A stretch of DNA of 64,000 bases, from the NCBI GenBank assembly GCA_041741375.1, contig JBGSKF010000116.1, forward strand, positions 6,784-70,783, read 5' to 3'. The notes under the pieces are model-generated. The model saw only the letters and a list, made by a program, of their open reading frames with translations. It was not told the origin of the DNA and ran no database searches. Shown here piece by piece: positions 26,871 through 35,641 of the stretch. The position numbers and the translations under genes are program-made. Origin of the DNA: Gemmatimonadales bacterium. GTDB taxonomy: Bacteria; Gemmatimonadota; Gemmatimonadetes; Gemmatimonadales; GWC2-71-9. Position 1 is the first letter of the stretch, and every line of letters begins with the position of its first letter.

Positions 26871-26909
26871 GTGCGAAGTGTGAAGTGTGAAGTCTGACGT
26901 TTGAAGTTT
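26871..26909 (+). repeat. Heptad array (GTGAAGT-type) just after the stop of 26302-26865
   Basis: gcgaagt gtgaagt gtgaagt ctgacgt ttgaagt. TGA recurs with 7-nt spacing. Confidence 0.8.
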
Positions 26910-27377
26910 CCTCCGCCGACAGAGCCGGAACCCAACTGGGTGTCTTCAGGCTTGGCATGGGTTCATTTTCAGCTGGAGCGCCTCTCCTACTCCCCGACAG
27001 CCAGCCACAAGAAGCACAAAAGGCACAAGACCACCACCCCGAGCGCCCATGCCCACCGCGCCCCCGGACGCAGACCGCAGGTGACACAGATGACCCAGAG
27101 GAGTCCTCCCCAGACCGGTCCCGCGTCGAGTCGGCGGGGGGGGGGGAGGCTCGGTGTCATCTGCGTCATCGGAGGGTTCCGCCCCTTTCGCGACGGCGAG
27201 ACCCCCTCCGGGTGTCGCCAGAGGCCCCGTTCGGCCACGGCGCTCCGCGACTCGAAAACACCAGATACCTCAAAGTTGGATGCCTTCCCAAACGCCGTCA
27301 CACACGCTGCCCGTAAGGGTTTCCGGGCGTCGCCCAAAATATTGGTGCTTTTTGTGTTCAAACTTGTCCGTAAGAGA

Positions 27378-28082
27378 CTACCATGTCATGGACCCTGTCA
27401 TGGGTTGGTACCTCTCCAGCCCGTCCCGCAGCAACCGGTAACCCACCAGGGCCACCCCCGTGCTCACGAGAACAAGCCCCGTTTCGACCAGAATCGCCGC
27501 TTCCGGGCGGGAAAGGAACTCTGCGACGCGGGTCTGGTGCGGAAGGAAGGGGGTGACCAGGGGGTCGAGAACAAACAGGAGCCCGAGAAAGACCAGGAAG
27601 GGAATGGCACTGATCTGATCGAGCCGGAACCGCACCAGAAGGGAGGAGAGCAGGATGGAGAGGGCCGTCATGGCACTCCACGACACGACCGCCACTCCCA
27701 CCAACCCGGGCCGGGTGAGTCCCGGCGGGAAGAGAGCCGGGGTAGCAAGGGACCAGGCCACGACGGGGAAGAGCGCCCCGGGGACCATGACGATGCCGGT
27801 GGCGATGCACCGGGCCAAGGCAAGTGTGGAGCGGTCCACAGGCAGGGCCAGGAGGAAGGACATGCTGCCGTCGAGCTTGTCCCGCAGTTGGTTCGGAGGG
27901 AGCAACAGGACGAACGCCAGGCCCATTCCCATCAGGATGATGACCGCGATCTCGCCGGTGGCGCGACCGGTGAGGGCCAGCACGCCGAAGATCACGGCCA
28001 GCATGAGCACGCTGCGCCCGAGTTGGGGGCGCACTCTCCGGAGATCAAGCAGGGTCAGTCGGCGCAATGGGGACGATGTCAT
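27378..28082 (-). CDS. ABC-2-type transporter permease-like membrane protein
   Basis: 234 aa with about 6 hydrophobic helices, downstream of an ABC ATPase. The ATG at 28082 overlaps the ATPase 3' end by 38 nt; an alternative start at 28004 (MLAVIFG) would avoid the overlap. Confidence 0.6.
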   Translation of the reverse strand: MTSSPLRRLTLLDLRRVRPQLGRSVLMLAVIFGVLALTGRATGEIAVIILMGMGLAFVLLLPPNQLRDKLDGSMSFLLALPVDRSTLALARCIATGIVMVPGALFPVVAWSLATPALFPPGLTRPGLVGVAVVSWSAMTALSILLSSLLVRFRLDQISAIPFLVFLGLLFVLDPLVTPFLPHQTRVAEFLSRPEAAILVETGLVLVSTGVALVGYRLLRDGLERYQPMTGSMTW

Positions 28083-28800
28083 GGTCCTCCAGCAGGGAGC
28101 GGATGGCGGCGATCCCGGTCAGGCCGGGATACCGTGCGGCGAGAGCGTGACGTGACACATCGTGGACCAGGCGGCCTCCGTGGAGGACAAGGATCCGGGT
28201 GGCGAGGAGGTCGACATCCTCGACCAGGTGGGTGGAATACACCAGGAGACGGTTTCCCTCGGCGGGGCAGACCGTCTCCAACAAGCGAACCAGTTCGCCC
28301 CGGACCACCGGGTCGAGTCCGGTGGTCGGTTCGTCGAGGAGGAGAATCGGAGGACGGAACGCCTCCGTGCAACAGAACCCGAGCTTGACCCTCATCCCCC
28401 GGGAAAGGGCGGCGAGCGGCGTGTCCCAGGGGAGGGCCATCCGGGTGCGAAGCTGATCCATCCATTGAGGGTCCCAGGTGGGATAGAATCCCGCCAGGAA
28501 CTCGCTGTGCTCCCGGACCGTCATCCACCCGAACCCGGGCATCTGGTCCGGGAGAAATCCCACACCGTGCCGGTCGGACCGGGCGATGGTGCCCACCGGG
28601 CGACCGCTCCAGTTCACCTCACCCTGATTCTGGGGGAGATGCCCCGCCATTCCCAGCAACATCGTGCTCTTGCCGGCCCCATTGGCGCCGAGCAACGCGA
28701 CACGCTCCCCCGGGGCGAACGCGAGTGTCACGGGGCCCAGGGTGAAGGCCCCGCGGGTGACGGTGAACTGATCGAGGGCGAGAAGGGGGGTGTGTGTCAT
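28045..28800 (-). CDS. ABC transporter ATP-binding protein
   Basis: Start at MTHTPLLALDQF (ATGA overlap with the upstream gene). Walker A GANGAGKST, signature LSRGMRVKL, Walker [14 protein letters not shown]-loop STH. Confidence 0.85.
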   Translation of the reverse strand: MTHTPLLALDQFTVTRGAFTLGPVTLAFAPGERVALLGANGAGKSTMLLGMAGHLPQNQGEVNWSGRPVGTIARSDRHGVGFLPDQMPGFGWMTVREHSEFLAGFYPTWDPQWMDQLRTRMALPWDTPLAALSRGMRVKLGFCCTEAFRPPILLLDEPTTGLDPVVRGELVRLLETVCPAEGNRLLVYSTHLVEDVDLLATRILVLHGGRLVHDVSRHALAARYPGLTGIAAIRSLLEDHDIVPIAPTDPA

Positions 28801-29465
28801 GTGCCAGCCAGGCTCCGAAGAAGACCGACGCCGAGGGAGAGAATCCAGAGCAGGAGGGCCACCGCCACCCCCGCCCGCCGGGACGTATGCGTCACGATGG
28901 GGATCCCCGCACTCAGGAGAAGAAACCACCCCAGATGGAAAAGCGAAAGGTGGGAGACCAACGTCTGCATGAGGGGACCGTCCGGTGTGATCAGGAGATC
29001 GAGTCCCGTCGGGATCAGGAGATCCCGCGGGGAGTGCAGTCGGCCGGGCCCCAGGATCCGGGCCGTCACCGCGATCACCGCCCCCTGGAGGGCCAGGATG
29101 ATCTCACCATAGAGCAGCAGGGAGAAGACGCCCCGGGTTCTCACCGGATGGCCGCCGAGGGTCAGGACACTCCAGACCACCCCGGTGGCCACCCCGGCTC
29201 GGAGGAGGGCCAGGATCGGGGAGAGAAGGCCCAGAATCAGAAACCAGGTGCGCAGGCCGGCCACCACCGCCGGGGGACTCTCCCGGAAGGCGTACGGAAT
29301 GAGAGTTCCGGTGAGGAGGGCGGCGCTGGTGAGCAGAAACGCAACCAGGAGGAGGGGCAGCCCCACGGGCCGGATGGTTCCGATCTCCTCCAGCGTCGGG
29401 GCGCAGAGTTGCGCCTGGCGGCGCCACCAGCCTGGAGGGGGGGGAGGACGATGGACCTCGGTCAT
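28797..29465 (-). CDS. Polytopic membrane protein (Yip1-like, about 5 TM helices)
   Basis: Start at MTEVHRPPPPPGWW (ATGA overlap with the thioredoxin gene). Five hydrophobic helices. The family call is tentative. Confidence 0.55.
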   Translation of the reverse strand: MTEVHRPPPPPGWWRRQAQLCAPTLEEIGTIRPVGLPLLLVAFLLTSAALLTGTLIPYAFRESPPAVVAGLRTWFLILGLLSPILALLRAGVATGVVWSVLTLGGHPVRTRGVFSLLLYGEIILALQGAVIAVTARILGPGRLHSPRDLLIPTGLDLLITPDGPLMQTLVSHLSLFHLGWFLLLSAGIPIVTHTSRRAGVAVALLLWILSLGVGLLRSLAGT

Positions 29466-30055
29466 CGAAGGGCTCCTTCGGGTATGGGTGAGATGGAGGG
29501 GAGAGGTGAGGGATCGTCGAGGAGATGGAGCAGGGAATCGAGTCGGTCCCTCCCCGACACGCCGTAGAACAGATGGGTGACTCCACGAGGGGTCATCACG
29601 GCGATCGCGGGGACGCCTTGCAATCCGAGGTTCCGGGCGATCGCTCCGGTCCGGTCGTGAACGAGGACGCGGGCCAACCGGGGCTGGACAAACCCGGGAT
29701 CCGATCGCCGGGACACCACCACCACCGGAGCACGCTCTGGTGCCCGGCTCACCAGTTCCGTCCAGGTGCGGAGTTCCGCCTTGCACCAGGAACACTGTTC
29801 ATCCACGTAGAGCAGGAGGGTGGGTTGGCGCAGATCCTCGGCGCGCCACATTCCCCCCGAGGCCAGAACCCCGGTGAGGGAATCCGCCGGTAGGGGGACG
29901 GGGAGCTCGGGATCACCAGGGCGCGGTGATCTCCGCGTGAGTGTCCACGCCCCTCCCGCGAGCATGAGACCCAGCACTCCCAGGGCCAGGACCCGGCGAA
30001 GGGTGGAGGGGGCAGGGCCCCCTCCACCGCGTGAGACCAGGGCGTCAGAACGCAC
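29462..30055 (-). CDS. Membrane-anchored thioredoxin-fold thiol:disulfide oxidoreductase (TlpA/ResA-like)
   Basis: GTG start overlaps the 3' end of the small-peptide gene by 11 nt. TM anchor VLALGVLGLMLAGGAW. Active site LLLYVDEQCSWCKAEL. cis-Pro region LQGVPAIAVMTPRG. Confidence 0.7.
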   Translation of the reverse strand: MRSDALVSRGGGGPAPSTLRRVLALGVLGLMLAGGAWTLTRRSPRPGDPELPVPLPADSLTGVLASGGMWRAEDLRQPTLLLYVDEQCSWCKAELRTWTELVSRAPERAPVVVVSRRSDPGFVQPRLARVLVHDRTGAIARNLGLQGVPAIAVMTPRGVTHLFYGVSGRDRLDSLLHLLDDPSPLPSISPIPEGALR

Positions 30056-30329
30056 CGAGGCAGATTCCTCCGCATGCGAACGCGAGCTCGGGGTTGAACA
30101 GCGCGGTCACAACCACGGCGGCGACCGAGGTTCCTCCGCTCAGAAGGAAGCCCAGGCAGAAGAGGCAGACGGCCTTGGCGAAGGGTCCCGCTCCCACGGT
30201 CTCGGGAGCATGCTCCCGTGCGATACCCGGTCTCTCCACGGCTTGGACCGGGGCTGCTGGTCGGGCCGGGGGAGAGGACATTCCGAGAATGAGGGCGAGC
30301 ATCCCGGCCTGCACAACAGTGTGAAGCAT
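30045..30329 (-). CDS. Small hydrophobic Cys-containing peptide B (94 aa), candidate exported peptide precursor
   Basis: GGAGG lies 6 nt upstream of the ATG at 30329. Sequence: MLHTVVQAGMLALILGMSSPPARPAAPVQAVERPGIAREHAPETVGAGPFAKAVCLFCLGFLLSGGTSVAAVVVTALFNPELAFACGGICLGAF. It lies inside the longer track ORF 30045-30536. Confidence 0.55.
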   Translation of the reverse strand: MLHTVVQAGMLALILGMSSPPARPAAPVQAVERPGIAREHAPETVGAGPFAKAVCLFCLGFLLSGGTSVAAVVVTALFNPELAFACGGICLGAF

Positions 30330-30381
30330 GATGAACCTCCTGGATGGAGTGAAGTTATGGTTGGTGGACAAAAGGTGGTAA

Positions 30382-30648
30382 TCATGTGATCGCAGCCCAG
30401 CACATTCCAACGCATCCGGCCACCACCAGGGCGGAGCCTTCGGTGAATGCGGCTGCCAGGACTGCCCCCCATCCTCGCAACCCGAGGATGATCCCTCCGC
30501 CGACGCAACCCAGGCAGCCGAGAACTTCAGGACCACTGCCCTCCACCGATTCCACGGCGGGCGGAGAGGAGGTGGTGTCCTTGGCGGGGAGAGTGGCCAC
30601 GTAGACGGCCAGCGCGAGTGCTATGGCAATGGCCCAGTAGTTCAACAT
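30382..30648 (-). CDS. Small hydrophobic Cys-containing peptide A (88 aa), paralogous in layout to peptide B
   Basis: GGAGG lies 5 nt upstream of the ATG. Sequence: MLNYWAIAIALALAVYVATLPAKDTTSSPPAVESVEGSGPEVLGCLGCVGGGIILGLRGWGAVLAAAFTEGSALVVAGCVGMCWAAIT. Confidence 0.55.
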   Translation of the reverse strand: MLNYWAIAIALALAVYVATLPAKDTTSSPPAVESVEGSGPEVLGCLGCVGGGIILGLRGWGAVLAAAFTEGSALVVAGCVGMCWAAIT

Positions 30649-30659
30649 GTGATCCTCCG

Positions 30660-30782
30660 TCAGCGAGGGGTGGTGGATGTGACCGCAGCGGGCTCATGGA
30701 GAAAGTCCGTGGACCCATCCGGGAGAGTGAGGGCGAGGATGGCCAGATACAGGGCCACCGCGAGTCGCACGAGATCGAACAT
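30660..30782 (-). CDS. 40-aa hydrophobic peptide (below the ORF-track size cut-off)
   Basis: My own translation of the reverse complement: GGAGGttcccATG, then MFDLVRLAVALYLAILALTLPDGSTDFLHEPAAVTSTTPR and a stop. It lies 12 nt after the C39 stop and 11 nt before the RBS/start of peptide A. Confidence 0.4.
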   Translation of the reverse strand: MFDLVRLAVALYLAILALTLPDGSTDFLHEPAAVTSTTPR

Positions 30783-30794
30783 GGGAACCTCCTT

Positions 30795-31496
30795 TCAACG
30801 GGTGAGATCCTCTCCCGGAATGGGAGAGGAGGAGATGCACCCGCGGCATCCTGCGTCGGCGGGGTGCATGACAACGCCGTTCCAACGGCGGGAAAAAAGT
30901 GACCAGGGAAGGAGCTGGCGGCCGCGCAGGGGATCGAGCACATCCACCGAGTCGCCGGGGGTGAGAGCCGCCACCGTGACGAAGTGCCCGGGCCGCATCC
31001 AGACGATGAGTGGAGGGCGATACCGGGCCAGAGCCCGGGGCCCAGCGGCCGGGTTCAGAGCCTTCAGGCCGACCGGTGCGTGGAGTGTGGCAGCCGCCTC
31101 CGCGAGGCGCCCGAGCCGGGTTCCCCGGGGGCCAAGACCGGTCAGGCGGGACAGGCTGTCGAGGGATGGGGAGACCTGTCCGGACAATCGGAGCCAGTTG
31201 GCGAGCGCCGCGGGACCACAGTCAGTCCACCCCTGCTGCCAGATCATGCCGTCCGAGGGAAGGGGGCGGGCGCCGGCCGCGAGGTCGGTGGTGCGGAGGC
31301 TGGATCGCGCACGGGCGAGGATCCGGTCCGGGTGGAGCAGGGGGATGGCCGCTCCAAGCGTGCAGGTTCCGGCCAGGAGCGCCGCTCCCGCGAGTCGCTG
31401 CCACGGGCGAATCGGGGTGCCGAGCGGGGCGGAAGGGGTGCCGTGCTGAGGATCTGAACGAGACAACGTGCCCTCCGGGTGGGCGGCGCAACGCAC
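30795..31496 (-). CDS. Standalone membrane-anchored peptidase C39-like (bacteriocin-processing type) protein
   Basis: Catalytic context IWQQGWTDCGPAALANWLRLSG (Gln/Cys), then RPGHFVTVAAL...VDVLDP (His/Asp). N-terminal hydrophobic segment AGAALLAGTCTLGAAIPLL. The start is uncertain (GTG at 31496; no early ATG). Confidence 0.7.
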   Translation of the reverse strand: MRCAAHPEGTLSRSDPQHGTPSAPLGTPIRPWQRLAGAALLAGTCTLGAAIPLLHPDRILARARSSLRTTDLAAGARPLPSDGMIWQQGWTDCGPAALANWLRLSGQVSPSLDSLSRLTGLGPRGTRLGRLAEAAATLHAPVGLKALNPAAGPRALARYRPPLIVWMRPGHFVTVAALTPGDSVDVLDPLRGRQLLPWSLFSRRWNGVVMHPADAGCRGCISSSPIPGEDLTR

Positions 31497-31612: not shown

Positions 31613-33355
31613 TCAGGCTTCCAGGGATTCGAGGCGGCGGAGTCCGAGGCGGAGGGGAATGAGGGTGGCGAGGGCGCAGACCGCGGTGACCAGGAGCAGG
31701 GCGATTCCGATCTCGCCGGTCAGGCCCGGATCCTGGCCGGCCTGGCGGGCCCGGAGCCAGGAGGAGAGGGGAGCGGCCTCGATCACGATGATCGCCGCGA
31801 GCACGCTGATCGCGGTCATCATGAACATCAACCCCCCGAAACTGGTGGGAATCTGGGCCGCATTCTCGGTGTCAAACTGAGGGTAGAGCACGCCGAAACC
31901 CACCGCCATCGCTCCGAGGGCAATCGTGAACGCGATCGTGGTGAACAGGCTGAGACCCAGCATGAACGGGCTGGCACGCAGGAGGATGTTGGTCACCCCG
32001 GTGATCAGGACCGCCAGGACGAGGAGGGGGAGGGTGCCGATCCAGTACTTGCTCCAGAGCATCCCGCGCATGTCCAGAGGGCTGGAGCGCAGGAGCCAGA
32101 GCTGCCGTCCCTCGAGTGAGATCGACGGAAACACAAACCGGGCGGCGATGGCCGCGAGCACGAACCCCGAGAGCCCCAGGTTGAGGAAGGACACCAGCGT
32201 GATCAGGGCGAACGGCACCCGCTCGCCGGTGAACAGGGGAAGGGCCCGGATGTTGAAGATGTAGACGATGAGAAGGACCGCCAACAGAATGAGCTGACTC
32301 CACTGCGTGGTGTCCCGGAAGAAGAGCCGGAGGTCCTTGAGCAGGAACTCCCGCCGGGTGGGCGGGAGCCAGGCGAGGAGTCGCCCGACGATGCGGGACA
32401 TGGTCCGCCCCCGCACGAAGTTCTCCGCCCCCTCCTGCGCCTTGGAAAATCCGGTGAGGTAGAGACGGCGATGCAGGGTGGCACCCATGACCACGAAGGC
32501 CGCCGCGGTGCTCCACAGCACGGCGAGCGGGAGGGGATCGGCCACGCGGAGCAGCCAGTTCATGATGGCCTGGCTGGCCCATTCACTGGGGAGAAATGGA
32601 TTGGTCGGAGCCCGGAGAACCACCAGGAAGTCCACCAGATTGCTGAATCCTTCCGGCCTCACCAGTTGCTCGGGCCGGGCGATCCGGAGGAGGAGAACGA
32701 TGCCACCCACCGCCCCGAGAGCCACCAGGCTCAAAAGATCCCGGGTTCGGCGGGCGGGAAACACGTTGACGAGCACCAGGGTGATCGCCGATCCGACCAC
32801 CGTGGGAAGGATGAGAAAGGGAGCCAGCGAGGCGAAGGCCACGAAGGGAAAGAGCCATCCTCCCCCGTACACGACCCCATACGCGGTCAGGATCGGAAGG
32901 ACGAGCAGGGCCACCATCCACGAGCTGTGCACCAGCGTCTCGGCGAGCTTGGCCAGGTAGACCCGGAGCCAGTCCACCGGGGCCGCGACGAGGGTGTCGA
33001 GGTCCTTGGCCAGAAAGAAGGTGGAGAGGGCGGTCACCAGGTTGGACAGCAGGAGGACGCCGCTGAACGCCAGCAGGATCAGGCCGAGCACCTTCCCCGC
33101 CAGGAGACTTCCGATCTCCTCCACGGTCCGGAAGTAGTGGACCACCCGCCAGGACACGCCGAAAACGGCCGCCCAGAACACGAGGCAGATGAGACCCAGA
33201 ACCACCACGCGGAGGAGGCTTCGATCCTGCCGACCCCGGGCGAGCATGCTCTGCCACTTGGGCACCAGAATGGTCCACAGGTGGGGTTGCTTCGGCGGAG
33301 CAGGTGTCGCGGGCGGAGCCACCGCGTCCGGGAGGGGCACTGTCACGTCAGTCAC
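31613..33355 (-). CDS. Large polytopic permease of the 'putative ABC exporter' type
   Basis: About 580 aa with 10 or more helices, directly downstream of an ABC ATPase. A GTG at 33355 (8-nt overlap with the ATPase stop) is preferred over the track start at 33433. Confidence 0.65.
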   Translation of the reverse strand: MTDVTVPLPDAVAPPATPAPPKQPHLWTILVPKWQSMLARGRQDRSLLRVVVLGLICLVFWAAVFGVSWRVVHYFRTVEEIGSLLAGKVLGLILLAFSGVLLLSNLVTALSTFFLAKDLDTLVAAPVDWLRVYLAKLAETLVHSSWMVALLVLPILTAYGVVYGGGWLFPFVAFASLAPFLILPTVVGSAITLVLVNVFPARRTRDLLSLVALGAVGGIVLLLRIARPEQLVRPEGFSNLVDFLVVLRAPTNPFLPSEWASQAIMNWLLRVADPLPLAVLWSTAAAFVVMGATLHRRLYLTGFSKAQEGAENFVRGRTMSRIVGRLLAWLPPTRREFLLKDLRLFFRDTTQWSQLILLAVLLIVYIFNIRALPLFTGERVPFALITLVSFLNLGLSGFVLAAIAARFVFPSISLEGRQLWLLRSSPLDMRGMLWSKYWIGTLPLLVLAVLITGVTNILLRASPFMLGLSLFTTIAFTIALGAMAVGFGVLYPQFDTENAAQIPTSFGGLMFMMTAISVLAAIIVIEAAPLSSWLRARQAGQDPGLTGEIGIALLLVTAVCALATLIPLRLGLRRLESLEA

Positions 33356-34103
33356 CCAGAATCGCTCCCAGCTCCCGCTCGGTGACCCCGCCGGTGAGCT
33401 TGAGGAAGAGCTGCTCCAGCGAGCCCGTCGCATCGTGCTCCCGGCGAAGCTCCTCCATCGTCCCCTCCGCGATGATGTGCCCGTTCCGGATGATGCCGAT
33501 CCGGTCGCACATCGCCTCGGCGATCTCCAGGGTGTGCGTGCTCATCAGCACGGTACCCCCCAGGCTCGTGAAGTGCCGGAAGATGTCCTTCAGCAGGCGA
33601 CCACTCTTCGGATCAAGTCCCACCATCGGTTCATCCACCACGATCACCTCGGGCTGGTGGACCAGCGCGCTGGAGATGATGAGCTTCTGCCGCATGCCAT
33701 GGCTGTAGGATTCGGTGAGCTCATCCTTCCACCGCGTGAGCTCGAAGAGATCGAGGAGCTCGTCGATCCGGCGCTCCAGCGCCTCCCCCTCCTGGCCGTA
33801 CAGGGCCGCGACGAACCGCATGAACTCGGCCCCGGTCAGCTTGTCATACACGTAGGGCCGGTCCGGGATGAACCCCAGCTTGGCCTTGGCCGCCATCGGG
33901 AACCGCGTGATGTCGAGACCCGCCACCTCGATGCGTCCGCTGGTGGGCTGCAGGATCCCGGCGATCATGCGCATCGTCGTGGTCTTGCCGGCTCCATTGG
34001 GGCCGAGAAAGCCGAAGAGCTGCCCTGCGGGGATGGCGAGATCGATGTGGTCCACCGCGGTGAACGACCCATACTTCTTGGTGAGGTCCGTGATCTGAAT
34101 CAT
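33348..34103 (-). CDS. ABC transporter ATP-binding protein
   Basis: Walker A GPNGAGKTTT, Q-loop, signature YSHGMRQKL, Walker B VIVVDEPMVGLD, H-loop STH. ATGA overlap with the upstream gene. Confidence 0.9.
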   Translation of the reverse strand: MIQITDLTKKYGSFTAVDHIDLAIPAGQLFGFLGPNGAGKTTTMRMIAGILQPTSGRIEVAGLDITRFPMAAKAKLGFIPDRPYVYDKLTGAEFMRFVAALYGQEGEALERRIDELLDLFELTRWKDELTESYSHGMRQKLIISSALVHQPEVIVVDEPMVGLDPKSGRLLKDIFRHFTSLGGTVLMSTHTLEIAEAMCDRIGIIRNGHIIAEGTMEELRREHDATGSLEQLFLKLTGGVTERELGAILGD

Positions 34104-35641
34104 GGAGTGGTCCGGAGAGGGACGATCTCGTGACCCAGCGCGCCCAGGAGGGGAACGAGGTCGGCGGGGCGGCTCCGGCCCCCTTCACGAAACCGGAGCA
34201 GGGCGGGGCTGGCGGGAACGACGCCCGTGGCCGGATCGGCGGCGACCCATCCATCGATCCAGACCTCGGTCCAGGCATGACCCAGGAGTCCGGCGGAGGT
34301 CACCGCCACGCCGGTCACCACCCGCGCCGGAATGTCCAGATGCCGTGCGAGGGTCATGAGCAGCCGGGCCTTTCCATCCGCCCCGGCACGGCCGGCCGAG
34401 AGGACACGCTCCGCCTCCAACGGGGCCTCGAAGGAGGTGTCGGTGGCGATCGCGGTGGAGACATGACGGGCCAAAGCCCGGACCTGTGCCAGGCGGTCCC
34501 GGGTTTGGCCCACCACGCCGAGGGCCAGGGCCCGGAGAGCCGAATCCCCCGCCGCGCCCGGCGAGGGGTAGTGGACCGAATAGCCCACGGGGGACTCCTC
34601 CGCATCGCCGGGTGGGGTGGTGCGCGTGATGTGAAGGACACCCCTTACAAGGCGTTGACGCCCTCCCTCCAGGGACCGGGTGAGGGAGGGGAACATCGGC
34701 ACCAGGGAGCGTCCCCAGGTGATCCCGAGGAGGACCGCCACGGTGTCCCCCGGGGCGAGGGAAGCGCCGGAGCCGAGCCAGGAGCGGCTTCCCGCCGGGT
34801 CGTGGACCACGGGACCGGTCTCCGCAATGTCGCGCTGGTAGTTGTTGCGCGCGATCTCGAACGCCGTGCGCTCCCACGACATCCCGAAGCCGTGCTGGAT
34901 GGCCAGCGGATTGCCCCGATCATCCACCCAGGTTGTCATCGGGAGCCCGTGGGCCGCGTGATCAAGACGCCAGCCACGAATGGTCACTCGGGTGGCGGGG
35001 ATCCAGGTGCCCTGTGGGTCCCGGTCCGCGCTGTCCACCACCACGAACGAGGACTCCGCCGCCACCGTCACCCGGTCGAGGCGGAAGCTCCGGTCCGCGG
35101 GGTCGAACACGAGGCGGGACATCGAGCGTCCGGAGGAGAGTCGGTCGGTGAGCACCATCTGATGAGGTAGGGCGGAGGCGGGAGTAAACGGTTCGGGAGA
35201 GGTGAGGGTCACCGGGGGGCCGGCGGGGGCGTCCATCGGAGCGGCCACCGTGACCACCAGCTCCGAACCGACGGAATCCGTGGTGGCAAAATACCGGGCT
35301 GACTGACCCGCCTGACTCTGCGTGGCCTCCACCGTCTGGACCACCAGGGTACGGCTGAATCCGCTCGACCCCCGGTAGCCCAGACGGATCGGTGTGCCGG
35401 CCACGCGCAGATCGAGGGACAGGGTTTCGTTGAGATGCCAGGTGTGCTCCGTCGTGTCCGCCGAGAGTGACCCGATCCCGGCCTGTCGGGACCCCAGCAT
35501 CACCGTGTAGAACCCGCTGAACGGGGCCAGTCGTTGCCCGGCTGCCTCGAGGTTCTGACGGGAGTTCATGCTGCGCACTCCGAGCCACCCCAGGGAAGCG
35601 GCCCAGGCCAGCAGGATCACGGCTCCGGCGACCTGCCTCAT
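34100..35641 (-). CDS. Membrane-anchored transglutaminase-like domain protein, apparently lacking the catalytic Cys
   Basis: N-terminal TM helix (GAVILLAWAASLGWLGV). C-terminal core GADGKARLLMTLARHLDIPARVVTGVAV...GHAWTEVWIDGWVAADPATG. His and Asp are retained, but the position about 17 residues before IPAR, where Cys is expected, reads G/D. Confidence 0.65.
   Translation of the reverse strand: MRQVAGAVILLAWAASLGWLGVRSMNSRQNLEAAGQRLAPFSGFYTVMLGSRQAGIGSLSADTTEHTWHLNETLSLDLRVAGTPIRLGYRGSSGFSRTLVVQTVEATQSQAGQSARYFATTDSVGSELVVTVAAPMDAPAGPPVTLTSPEPFTPASALPHQMVLTDRLSSGRSMSRLVFDPADRSFRLDRVTVAAESSFVVVDSADRDPQGTWIPATRVTIRGWRLDHAAHGLPMTTWVDDRGNPLAIQHGFGMSWERTAFEIARNNYQRDIAETGPVVHDPAGSRSWLGSGASLAPGDTVAVLLGITWGRSLVPMFPSLTRSLEGGRQRLVRGVLHITRTTPPGDAEESPVGYSVHYPSPGAAGDSALRALALGVVGQTRDRLAQVRALARHVSTAIATDTSFEAPLEAERVLSAGRAGADGKARLLMTLARHLDIPARVVTGVAVTSAGLLGHAWTEVWIDGWVAADPATGVVPASPALLRFREGGRSRPADLVPLLGALGHEIVPLRTTP

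Follow-up and report, generated by a model that had tools for sequence, protein, structure and literature searches.

The window analysed here is a stretch of 64,000 nt from a Gemmatimonadales bacterium (assembly GCA_041741375.1, contig JBGSKF010000116.1, positions 6,784 to 70,783 of the forward strand), and the positions given below are counted from its first letter. Eight genes on its minus strand form a cluster which encodes a free-standing C39 peptidase, three small open reading frames (ORFs) of 40, 88 and 94 aa, a thioredoxin-like protein with a CSWC motif, a 222-aa membrane protein, an ATP-binding cassette (ABC) ATPase and a 234-aa permease. The original prediction, made from the sequence alone, had regarded this cluster as a locus for disulfide-containing, exported, bacteriocin-like peptides. 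Comparative sequence analysis indicates that the 88- and 94-aa ORFs represent a real, conserved peptide family, in which they constitute a pair of types, denoted 1 and 2. The features of the cluster are the following, with TM standing for transmembrane and P and P' numbering the residues before and after the predicted cleavage site.

31472-31476, minus strand: GGAGG ribosome-binding site of the C39 gene, 5 nt before the TTG start
30795-31466, minus strand: C39 peptidase gene, 223 aa from the probable TTG start at 31466; the longest ORF, 30795-31496, starts with GTG at 31496
30660-30782, minus strand: 40-aa ORF, with GGAGG at 30788-30792
30382-30648, minus strand: 88-aa ORF, putative type-1 precursor, with GGAGG at 30654-30658
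30535-30648, minus strand: predicted type-1 leader, with a hydrophobic N-terminal helix, a Pro/Ser/Thr linker and the end ...AVESVEGS (V at P4, G at P2)
30382-30534, minus strand: predicted type-1 core, 50 aa and stop, GPEVLGCLGC...CVGMCWAAIT (C-x2-C...C-x3-C)
30045-30329, minus strand: 94-aa ORF, putative type-2 precursor, with GGAGG at 30336-30340
30189-30329, minus strand: predicted type-2 leader, ending ...APETVGA
30045-30188, minus strand: predicted type-2 core, 47 aa and stop, GPFAKAVCLFC...CGGICLGAF
29462-30055, minus strand: putative CSWC thiol-disulfide oxidoreductase, thioredoxin fold, membrane-anchored, of the TlpA/ResA/DsbE/DsbF kind
28797-29465, minus strand: 5-TM membrane protein, 222 aa, probable distant YknW/Yip1-like relative
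28045-28800, minus strand: ABC transporter ATPase, DrrA/PmtA/LanF-like subfamily
27378-28082, minus strand: 6-TM ABC-2 type permease, 234 aa, matching PF13346 below the cut-off, with six hydrophobic segments

The coordinates of the peptidase gene, of the small ORFs and of the genes downstream, as well as the gaps, ribosome-binding site spacing and gene overlaps read in the original prediction, were all confirmed on the minus strand. The gaps between the C39 gene and the 40-, 88- and 94-aa ORFs measure 12, 11 and 52 nt, respectively, and in the three small ORFs GGAGG precedes the ATG by 5, 5 and 6 nt. The 94-aa ORF and the oxidoreductase gene share 11 nt, ATGA overlaps link the oxidoreductase gene to that of the 5-TM protein and the latter to the ATPase gene, and the ATPase and permease genes overlap by 38 nt. 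GGAGG occurs 470 times on the two strands of the window (G+C content of 67%), that is, at ~0.4% of positions, so that its presence at the correct spacing in front of all three small ORFs is not expected by chance. An Rfam scan of the 26-36 kb region yielded no RNA families, and a scan for promoters and terminators gave scores no better than those of shuffled sequence.

Conservation of the cluster in Gemmatimonadota

A search with the 88-aa peptide retrieved eight close homologues; on their contigs the cluster recurs, 40-aa ORF included. Further loci, reached through homologues of the C39 peptidase at about 40% identity, keep this gene order: C39 is followed by 3-4 small ORFs and by the genes of a CxxC protein, a 226-aa membrane protein, an ABC ATPase and a permease. 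When genomes, one per species, were scanned with an alignment of the membrane protein and two narrow peptide patterns, 22 loci were recovered, and the taxonomic range obtained in this way is a lower bound. All 22 belong to metagenome-assembled genomes (MAGs) of Gemmatimonadota, some from the order Gemmatimonadales and the others from Longimicrobiales; those few peptide homologues that have taxon names likewise come from Gemmatimonadaceae. Annotation with hidden Markov models (HMMs) showed the gene order to be complete in every locus with full context, comprising six close relatives and 21 distant Gemmatimonadota loci, the latter sharing only 26-40% protein identity with the window. As for the proposed conservation of the small ORFs, all three are kept in six distinct close relatives, and the 88- and 94-aa types are present in the distant loci.

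A conserved family of precursor peptides

The two larger small ORFs of the window are distinguished by the motifs VEGSGP and CLGC...CVGMC (88 aa) and TVGAGP and CLFC...CGGIC (94 aa). The first peptide HMM included the window 94-aa sequence and was, in this respect, circular; the type HMMs were rebuilt from Longimicrobiales sequences only. The resulting type-1 HMM recognized the 88-aa peptide with an E-value of 3e-18, and the type-2 HMM recognized the 94-aa peptide with an E-value of 8e-13. BLASTP comparison of the 88- and 94-aa ORFs gave no significant match; the type-1 and type-2 profiles align with an hhalign probability of 96.7%. A profile search against 1.84 billion representatives gave 70 peptide matches at E <= 1e-3, nearly all of 82-104 aa. 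Across 56 diverse family members, none of the four Cys varies, and neither does the Gly of V-x-G, which bears out the conservation anticipated for the peptides. Of the shared layout originally described for the two peptides, G-[SA]-G-P is a local form of a wider V-x-G-(G/x) motif.

Altogether, the 22 loci encode 85 precursors, 2-5 in each. Type 1 is followed by type 2 in every complete locus of the two orders, often with the addition of accessory types. We aligned 82 of the 85 precursors on the Gly motif, such that G at P2 is a product of the alignment itself. P4 is V or I in 76 of these sequences; P1 is G in 37, S or A in 20 and R, T, Q or N in 25; Q or G occupies P1', acidic residues occupy P5 and P6, and P7 and P12 hold a mixture of A, T, S and V. 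In many sister peptides of these clusters, the site is a double-glycine one of textbook form, IVGG↓Q or VVGG↓Q (the arrow denotes predicted cleavage). The predicted cores are hydrophobic and 37-53 aa long; 68 precursors have the pattern C-x2-C...C-x3-C, and 13 have C-x20-C. A metal site formed by the four Cys was considered and rejected, given that sister peptides have only two. For the window peptides, the calculated core masses with two disulfides are ~4745 Da for type 1 (50 aa) and ~4620 Da for type 2 (47 aa).

The AlphaFold2 (AF2) model of the 88-aa peptide consists of a leader helix (residues 4-18), a disordered linker and three core helices (40-57, 60-67 and 72-87), with the two Cys pairs located on different helices and a predicted local distance difference test score (pLDDT) of about 75-80 in the core.

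At L016:5595-6595, three tandem precursor paralogues have leaders that are 88-93% identical and cores that are only 35-48% identical, a conserved-leader/variable-core pattern, and a similar array is present in L019. At L007:7575-7946, the type-1 frame overlaps a C39 ORF extended at its 3' end (250 aa vs 199 aa in L008), and only a 44-aa remnant with a GTG start can be called; this anomaly probably reflects either an assembly frameshift or a decaying copy.

The 40-aa ORF, which had originally been grouped with the two peptides, is of a different nature. It encodes one hydrophobic helix and an acidic, Thr-rich tail, and because it contains neither Cys nor a Gly motif, its sequence shows that it is not a third precursor like the other two. 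Six distinct close relatives retain it at 39-40 aa with the centre TLPDGST[DE]FLH, and gene callers annotated it in the public records of close relatives. The pooled ratio of nonsynonymous to synonymous substitution rates (dN/dS) is about 0.57 vs 0.27-0.41 for the neighbouring genes, indicating weaker constraint. No counterpart was found in the Longimicrobiales loci, and neither BLASTP nor the type HMMs detected significant similarity to the precursors, such that its origin as a leader paralogue stays an impression. Probably, the 40-aa ORF encodes a lineage-specific small membrane protein or is a leader-only remnant.

A stand-alone C39 peptidase

The C39 protein matches Pfam family PF03412 with an E-value of 1.4e-9 (38.3 bits vs a cut-off of 22). 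The Gln/Cys/His/Asp context originally noticed in its sequence corresponds to Q87, C93, H171 and D188, which are invariant in an alignment of 18 homologues. A single-sequence query found no match among the sequences of the PDB; the family profile, which was required here, matched the peptidase-containing ABC transporter (PCAT) PCAT1 (4RY2) with an E-value of 1.5e-16, the catalytic residues being in register with QxxxxDCG, HFV and DP of PCAT1. In Foldseek comparisons, the AF2 model (pLDDT of 83) gave template modelling scores of 0.81 to LahT150 (6MPZ) and 0.85 to ComA (5XE8), with root-mean-square deviations of 1.8-2.7 to PCAT1; taken over LahT150, ComA and PCAT1, the scores span 0.8-0.85. The protein consists of one N-terminal TM helix, an amphipathic helix and the C39 domain, with no transporter or nucleotide-binding domain (NBD). 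Accordingly, both the hydrophobic anchor and the absence of a fusion to an ABC exporter, noted at the outset, are confirmed, and the unfused state is common to all 24 homologues (199-250 aa; 223-233 aa for the window protein). By sequence and predicted fold, the protein is thus a true C39 peptidase with an intact catalytic set, and not a PCAT.

C39 enzymes cut after GG, GA or GS, with hydrophobic residues at -4, -7 and -12 (PMC10885120). The cleavage register predicted for the window peptides, V-E-G-S↓G and T-V-G-A↓G, places GS and GA at P2-P1, and the V-x-G-(G/x) motif of the neighbouring ORFs suggests that the window C39 would cleave after such a double-glycine-type site.

The translation start of the peptidase is probably the TTG at 31466 rather than the GTG at 31496, as judged from the GGAGG located 5 nt upstream of the former and the match to the N-termini of orthologues, which begin with MSRSDPQ or MTRSDPQ; the start of the longest ORF would thus lie 30 nt too far upstream. 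In the window lineage, the protein has an additional C-terminal tail (30795-30860) with a CxxC of its own (AGCRGC, and GCDGC in relatives), which is absent from the Longimicrobiales homologues. Perhaps the tail provides another site for redox chemistry or metal binding, or is itself acted on by the oxidoreductase encoded nearby.

Leaders and the side of the membrane

The leaders of the precursor set are 38-82 aa long, with a median of 52. Their n-regions contain 215 Lys or Arg (K/R) vs 6 Asp or Glu (D/E), the h-regions have a median Kyte-Doolittle hydropathy of 2.3, and the pro-regions, of about 31 aa, are acidic (284 D/E vs 80 K/R). Many leaders also carry A-x-A-like sites of the AQA↓A type. 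Judging from these features, the leaders resemble Sec signal peptides and appear to be pre-pro sequences rather than double-glycine leaders of the classical kind.

Topology was judged from simple K/R counts and hydrophobic segments. Around the anchor of the C39 proteins, there are 115 K/R on the N-terminal side vs 74 on the C-terminal side (24 sequences), often as an RRRR block. The oxidoreductase has the same kind of N-terminal anchor, with 88 vs 51 K/R (25 sequences). A precedent for a stand-alone C39 peptidase in the periplasm is FapD (PMC5557850). Because of the leader architecture, the charge of the C39 anchor, the family and anchor of the oxidoreductase and the FapD precedent, we favour processing outside the cytoplasm, as far as this can be read from sequence.

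Oxidoreductase, 5-TM protein and ABC transporter

The protein originally called a CSWC thioredoxin gave only sub-threshold matches in Pfam as a single sequence, and its assignment comes from the family: the CxxC and the fold core are invariant among 13 homologues, and the family profile matches only extracytoplasmic thiol-disulfide oxidoreductases (TDORs), namely, the thioredoxin-like protein 2M72 (4e-7), DsbF (5e-6), ResA (3e-5), StoA (7e-5) and CcmG/DsbE (1e-3). With its CxxC, its profile and a single N-terminal hydrophobic segment, the protein is classified as a putative TDOR of the TlpA/ResA/DsbE type.

The 222-aa protein contains five hydrophobic segments, in agreement with the approximately five TM helices counted initially, and the motif LLYGE-IL--QG is invariant among its homologues. 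It matches NCBIfam NF052650 (YknW_fam) with an E-value of 1.8e-10 over profile positions 29-212 of 213, with 40.7 bits vs a cut-off of 110; four of six homologues also match this family (best E-value of 3.9e-12), and the profile found no match in the PDB. The protein is therefore best described as a likely distant relative of YknW/Yip1 and not an equivalog. The suggestion that it provides immunity is unsafe, since the 5-TM protein of bacteroidetocin loci is needed for activity and gave no immunity (PMC6671954).

The ABC ATPase matches PF00005 (E-value of 4e-23), and its best NCBIfam matches, PmtA, GldA and DrrA, are each below the equivalog cut-off. The permease, which adjoins the ATPase in all loci, matches PF13346 with an E-value of 2.6e-5 (24.3 bits vs a cut-off of 25). 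The cluster contains no gene for a membrane-fusion protein of the YknX type, and the permease is of the ABC-2 rather than the MacB type.

Genomic neighbourhood

Directly upstream of the C39 gene, in the same orientation (31613-35641, minus strand), the window encodes a 606-aa membrane protein of family PF16949 (ABC_tran_2), an ABC ATPase and a 513-aa transglutaminase-core protein; in close relatives, a 262-aa protein of unknown function is also found among these genes. The close relatives L001, L004 and L033 have these genes in the same place and Longimicrobiales do not, which is why they probably belong to a separate operon. Downstream of the permease, ~480 nt (26900-27377) contain no convincing gene and include a run of C (ccccccccccc near 27140); past this gap, on the other strand, lie the gene of a zinc-ribbon protein and two genes for cytochrome c maturation, ccmH and ccmF. 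A functional link to either the transglutaminase/ABC/PF16949 genes or the ccm genes was rejected, given that neither adjacency is kept in Longimicrobiales.

Of the genes that flank the cluster in the 21 Longimicrobiales loci, the M28 peptidase was detected in each, AhpC-Sec everywhere except in L019, and AsnB in 17; AsnB was not matched in L008/L020, L016, L019 and L024. The AhpC-Sec gene lies just upstream of C39, in the same orientation, and encodes an AhpC/TSA-Redoxin protein of ~206 aa with a signal peptide (L007:6185-6805), which gene callers split into two ORFs. All 22 locus records that carry this gene (in the range L007-L031, where L011 equals L009 and L020 equals L008) contain the motif FYRGHW-TGA-P[YWHF]-C, with an in-frame TGA at the first Cys of the CxxC. 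Given this replacement, the protein is, by its sequence, very probably a selenocysteine (U-x-x-C) redoxin. It was not detected in L019 and is not present in the window. A conserved CAGCTC-gtg-GAGCTG hairpin after the TGA folds no better than shuffled sequences (z of 0.33).

Comparison with known systems

Literature searches turned up neither this cluster nor any C39 system described from Gemmatimonadota. The closest experimentally studied analogue appears to be the bacteroidetocin (class IIf) locus, to which the cluster is likened by the published description of gene content, not by sequence (PMC6671954). Bacteroidetocin loci encode a double-glycine peptide with four Cys, a thiol oxidoreductase, a 5-TM protein and a C39-ABC protein, all of which are required for toxin activity (PMC6671954), and their hosts are Gram-negative members of the Fibrobacteres-Chlorobi-Bacteroidetes (FCB) group (Bacteroidota), to which Gemmatimonadota likewise belong. 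The mature bacteroidetocin is about 42 aa long compared to about 47-50 aa for the predicted window cores, and both combine four Cys with a glycine-type site. However, the bacteroidetocin C39 domain is fused to the ABC exporter, whereas that of the window is free-standing with its own TM anchor; the bacteroidetocin leaders are 15 aa long, unlike the 38-82-aa leaders with a signal-peptide-like start found here; and only the window cluster has a separate ATPase and 6-TM ABC-2 permease and 2-5 precursors of several types in tandem. The cluster differs from bacteroidetocin and other class II loci in its free-standing anchored protease, its signal-like pre-pro leaders, its ABC-2 transporter and its conserved two-type peptide core.

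Locus-encoded thioredoxin-fold proteins that ensure disulfide formation in the peptide are familiar from pediocin (PedC) and sublancin (BdbA/BdbB), and class IIb bacteriocins consist of two different Gly-rich helical peptides which are encoded side by side and inherited together. All these systems, however, are Gram-positive, with PCAT exporters and short leaders.

The C39 peptidase shares its family, fold and catalytic residues with those of PCAT-type (AMS, for maturation and secretion through an ABC transporter) class II bacteriocins, class II microcins and double-glycine RiPPs, peptides made by the ribosome and modified after translation (PCAT1, ComA, LahT; PMC10885120; 4RY2, 3K8U, 6MPZ). 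The systems also have in common Gly at P2, a hydrophobic P4 and Gly/Ala-rich hydrophobic products. By contrast, the window cluster has no transporter fusion, its leaders are hydrophobic and signal-like, P1 is often not G, A or S, and its C39 is probably extracytoplasmic. Double-glycine precursors have a leader of about 15-30 aa without a hydrophobic segment, a description that does not apply to the leaders of the window family.

SdpC of Bacillus subtilis is exported by Sec and subsequently trimmed. The SDP toxin, a hydrophobic disulfide peptide of ~42 aa, is countered by the YknWXYZ transporter, an ABC system that needs the Yip1-family protein YknW (PMC4887032). YknYZ is of the MacB type with the fusion protein YknX, whereas the window cluster encodes an ABC-2 permease and no fusion protein; in addition, SDP maturation uses SdpAB, not C39, and the YknW match of the window protein is far below the family cut-off. 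Finally, FapD of the Pseudomonas Fap amyloid system, likened here by description, is a stand-alone extracytoplasmic C39 with Sec-exported substrates and a requirement for the catalytic Cys (PMC5557850), but it is soluble, with a cleavable signal peptide, and belongs to an amyloid operon with an outer-membrane pore, its substrate being unknown, whereas the window C39 is anchored and encoded next to potential substrates with the Gly motif.

Proposed mechanism and alternative explanations

The evidence tilts, by a modest degree, towards the cluster being a module dedicated to maturing and transporting small hydrophobic peptides stapled by disulfides, with an extracytoplasmic C39 step and bacteriocin-like products. 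In this reading, the topology, the bond that is cut, the way the disulfides pair, what the transporter does and how the peptides act are all predicted. The 88- and 94-aa genes would encode pre-pro-peptides, composed of a signal-peptide-like N-terminus, a linker or pro-region and a double-glycine-type site (V-x-G-S↓G or T-V-G-A↓G). The hydrophobic N-terminus would insert the precursor in the inner membrane or carry it across, probably via Sec, whereupon the membrane-anchored C39, predicted to face the periplasm, would cut after the G-x site, releasing cores of about 47-50 aa. The co-anchored TlpA/DsbE-like oxidoreductase would form two disulfides, stapling helix 1 (C-x2-C) to the last helix (C-x3-C), and the YknW-like 5-TM protein together with the ABC-2 transporter would extract or expel the membrane-active products, for export, self-protection or both. 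The products would most likely be membrane-acting and bacteriocin-like, with types 1 and 2 possibly forming a pair; that the two act pairwise is a guess from their constant co-occurrence. The variable number and type of accessory peptides between loci and the contrast between leaders and cores in L016 would support a secreted bioactive role, as would the gene content in common with bacteroidetocin loci (PMC6671954) and the protection of Bacillus from SDP by a transporter that contains YknW (PMC4887032). More broadly, we regard it as an even call whether the cluster represents double-glycine-type maturation uncoupled from ABC export, with Sec exit, a periplasm-facing anchored C39, a stapling oxidoreductase and a peptide pair conserved since ancient times across Gemmatimonadota.

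Several observations weigh against this reading. The leaders of the window lineage lack any K/R in the n-region, and the anchor of its C39 has 2 K/R on the N-terminal side vs 4 on the C-terminal side; with these atypical charges, the topology argument is carried mainly by the Longimicrobiales relatives. Many type-1 peptides have R, Q, T or N at P1, which is unusual for C39 enzymes, and the scissile bond could therefore follow the second Gly instead, with the register shifted by one. Pfam and NCBIfam contain no family, and no known bacteriocin family, that matches the window peptides, the 56 family members or the 10 sister peptides, and a Foldseek search with the 88-aa model matched no solved fold in the PDB (best E-value of 5). 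The cluster has no gene for an outer-membrane or adaptor component through which a diderm cell could release the products, and all relatives are known only as MAGs. Furthermore, the Longimicrobiales cluster occupies a fixed chromosomal position, between AsnB/AhpC-Sec and the M28 peptidase, and the conservation of the type-1/type-2 pair matches that of the enzymes (about 40% vs 26-38%). Conservation and fixed position look more like those of a conserved physiological system than of a toxin island: the cluster is vertically inherited, and the core peptide pair evolves no faster than the enzymes, which is not typical of toxin islands. Hence, of the original view of a locus for disulfide-containing exported peptides, the C39 peptidase, the peptide family and a gene content that mirrors bacteroidetocin stand, whereas the mode of inheritance and the pace at which the peptide pair evolves do not fit the bacteriocin side of it well.

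The position of C39 could also be the opposite one. As in a PCAT split into separate polypeptides, the peptidase would face the cytoplasm beside the ABC-2 transporter and remove the whole leader there, the hydrophobic leader helix only bringing the precursor to the membrane; the ABC-2 transporter and the 5-TM protein would then export the cores, to be oxidized outside. Every PF03412 peptidase characterized in a bacteriocin system works at the cytoplasmic side of its ABC exporter (PMC10885120; PMC5557850), an ABC ATPase and permease always accompany C39 in the present loci, the best NCBIfam match of the ATPase is PmtA, an exporter of leaderless hydrophobic phenol-soluble modulin peptides, and the anchor and leader charges of the window lineage mentioned above point in the same direction. 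Yet 18 of the 24 C39 homologues show an excess of K/R on the N-terminal side of the anchor, often with RRRR abutting the helix; in 80 of the 85 precursors, an h-region comes after a K/R n-region, and many add an A-x-A type c-region, a Sec signature with no known role in PCAT leaders; and the permease is a small 6-TM ABC-2 protein, not of the PCAT type. We therefore consider a cytoplasmic C39 rather unlikely. We assign a comparably low probability to the possibility that the same maturation chemistry yields peptides that stay in the envelope of the producer as a conserved pair with a lineage-specific housekeeping function in Gemmatimonadota, for example, as a hetero-oligomeric membrane component, in regulating the ABC transporter or in thiol or metal handling. 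Such a role would accord with the constant chromosomal position in Longimicrobiales, the invariable succession of types 1 and 2, dN/dS values of 0.33-0.41, indicative of purifying selection, the lack of an outer-membrane export component and of a separate immunity gene in the cluster, the secreted redoxin, very probably a selenocysteine protein, adjacent to it in Longimicrobiales, and the cytochrome c maturation genes adjoining it in the window. This last adjacency, however, is not kept in Longimicrobiales; the set of accessory peptides changes from locus to locus, by number as well as type; among recent paralogues the leader is retained and the cores diverge, as is the pattern of secreted bioactive peptides; members with two Cys are unable to form a four-Cys metal site; and ordinary membrane subunits need no protease for leader removal. 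The related proposal that the small proteins are subunits of a thiol-redox relay is likewise weakened by the two-Cys C-x20-C members and the tandem paralogues.

Could the small ORFs instead be spurious frames of high-GC DNA, with C39, thioredoxin and ABC genes as unrelated neighbours? A genome with 67% G+C is full of spurious long ORFs, and BLASTP did not relate the two peptides to each other. However, the ORFs, their order, the Shine-Dalgarno sites and the Cys and Gly motifs are conserved across loci that share 26-40% protein identity, HMMs built without the window sequences recognize both peptides, and the library-wide HMM search gave 70 representatives, nearly all of them within 82-104 aa. 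The probability of a chance assemblage is vanishingly small, the comparative sequence data already refuting it.

Implications

The reading of the cluster as an extracytoplasmic maturation module bears on a phylum, Gemmatimonadota, in which natural products and secretion are almost uncharacterized. Defined here, together with its putative processing cluster, is a peptide family that neither Pfam nor NCBIfam contains; it comprises at least 70 sequence clusters and offers natural substrates for a free-standing, probably periplasmic C39 peptidase, a class with one studied member, FapD, the substrate of which is unknown. The predicted cores of about 4.6-4.7 kDa, with two predicted disulfides, are candidates for new membrane-active peptides, and a soluble C39 domain tolerating varied P1 residues could serve as a tool for leader removal. 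If the proposed topology holds, leader removal by C39 need not be coupled to an ABC exporter, and mining for double-glycine peptides via PCATs would miss clusters of this kind.

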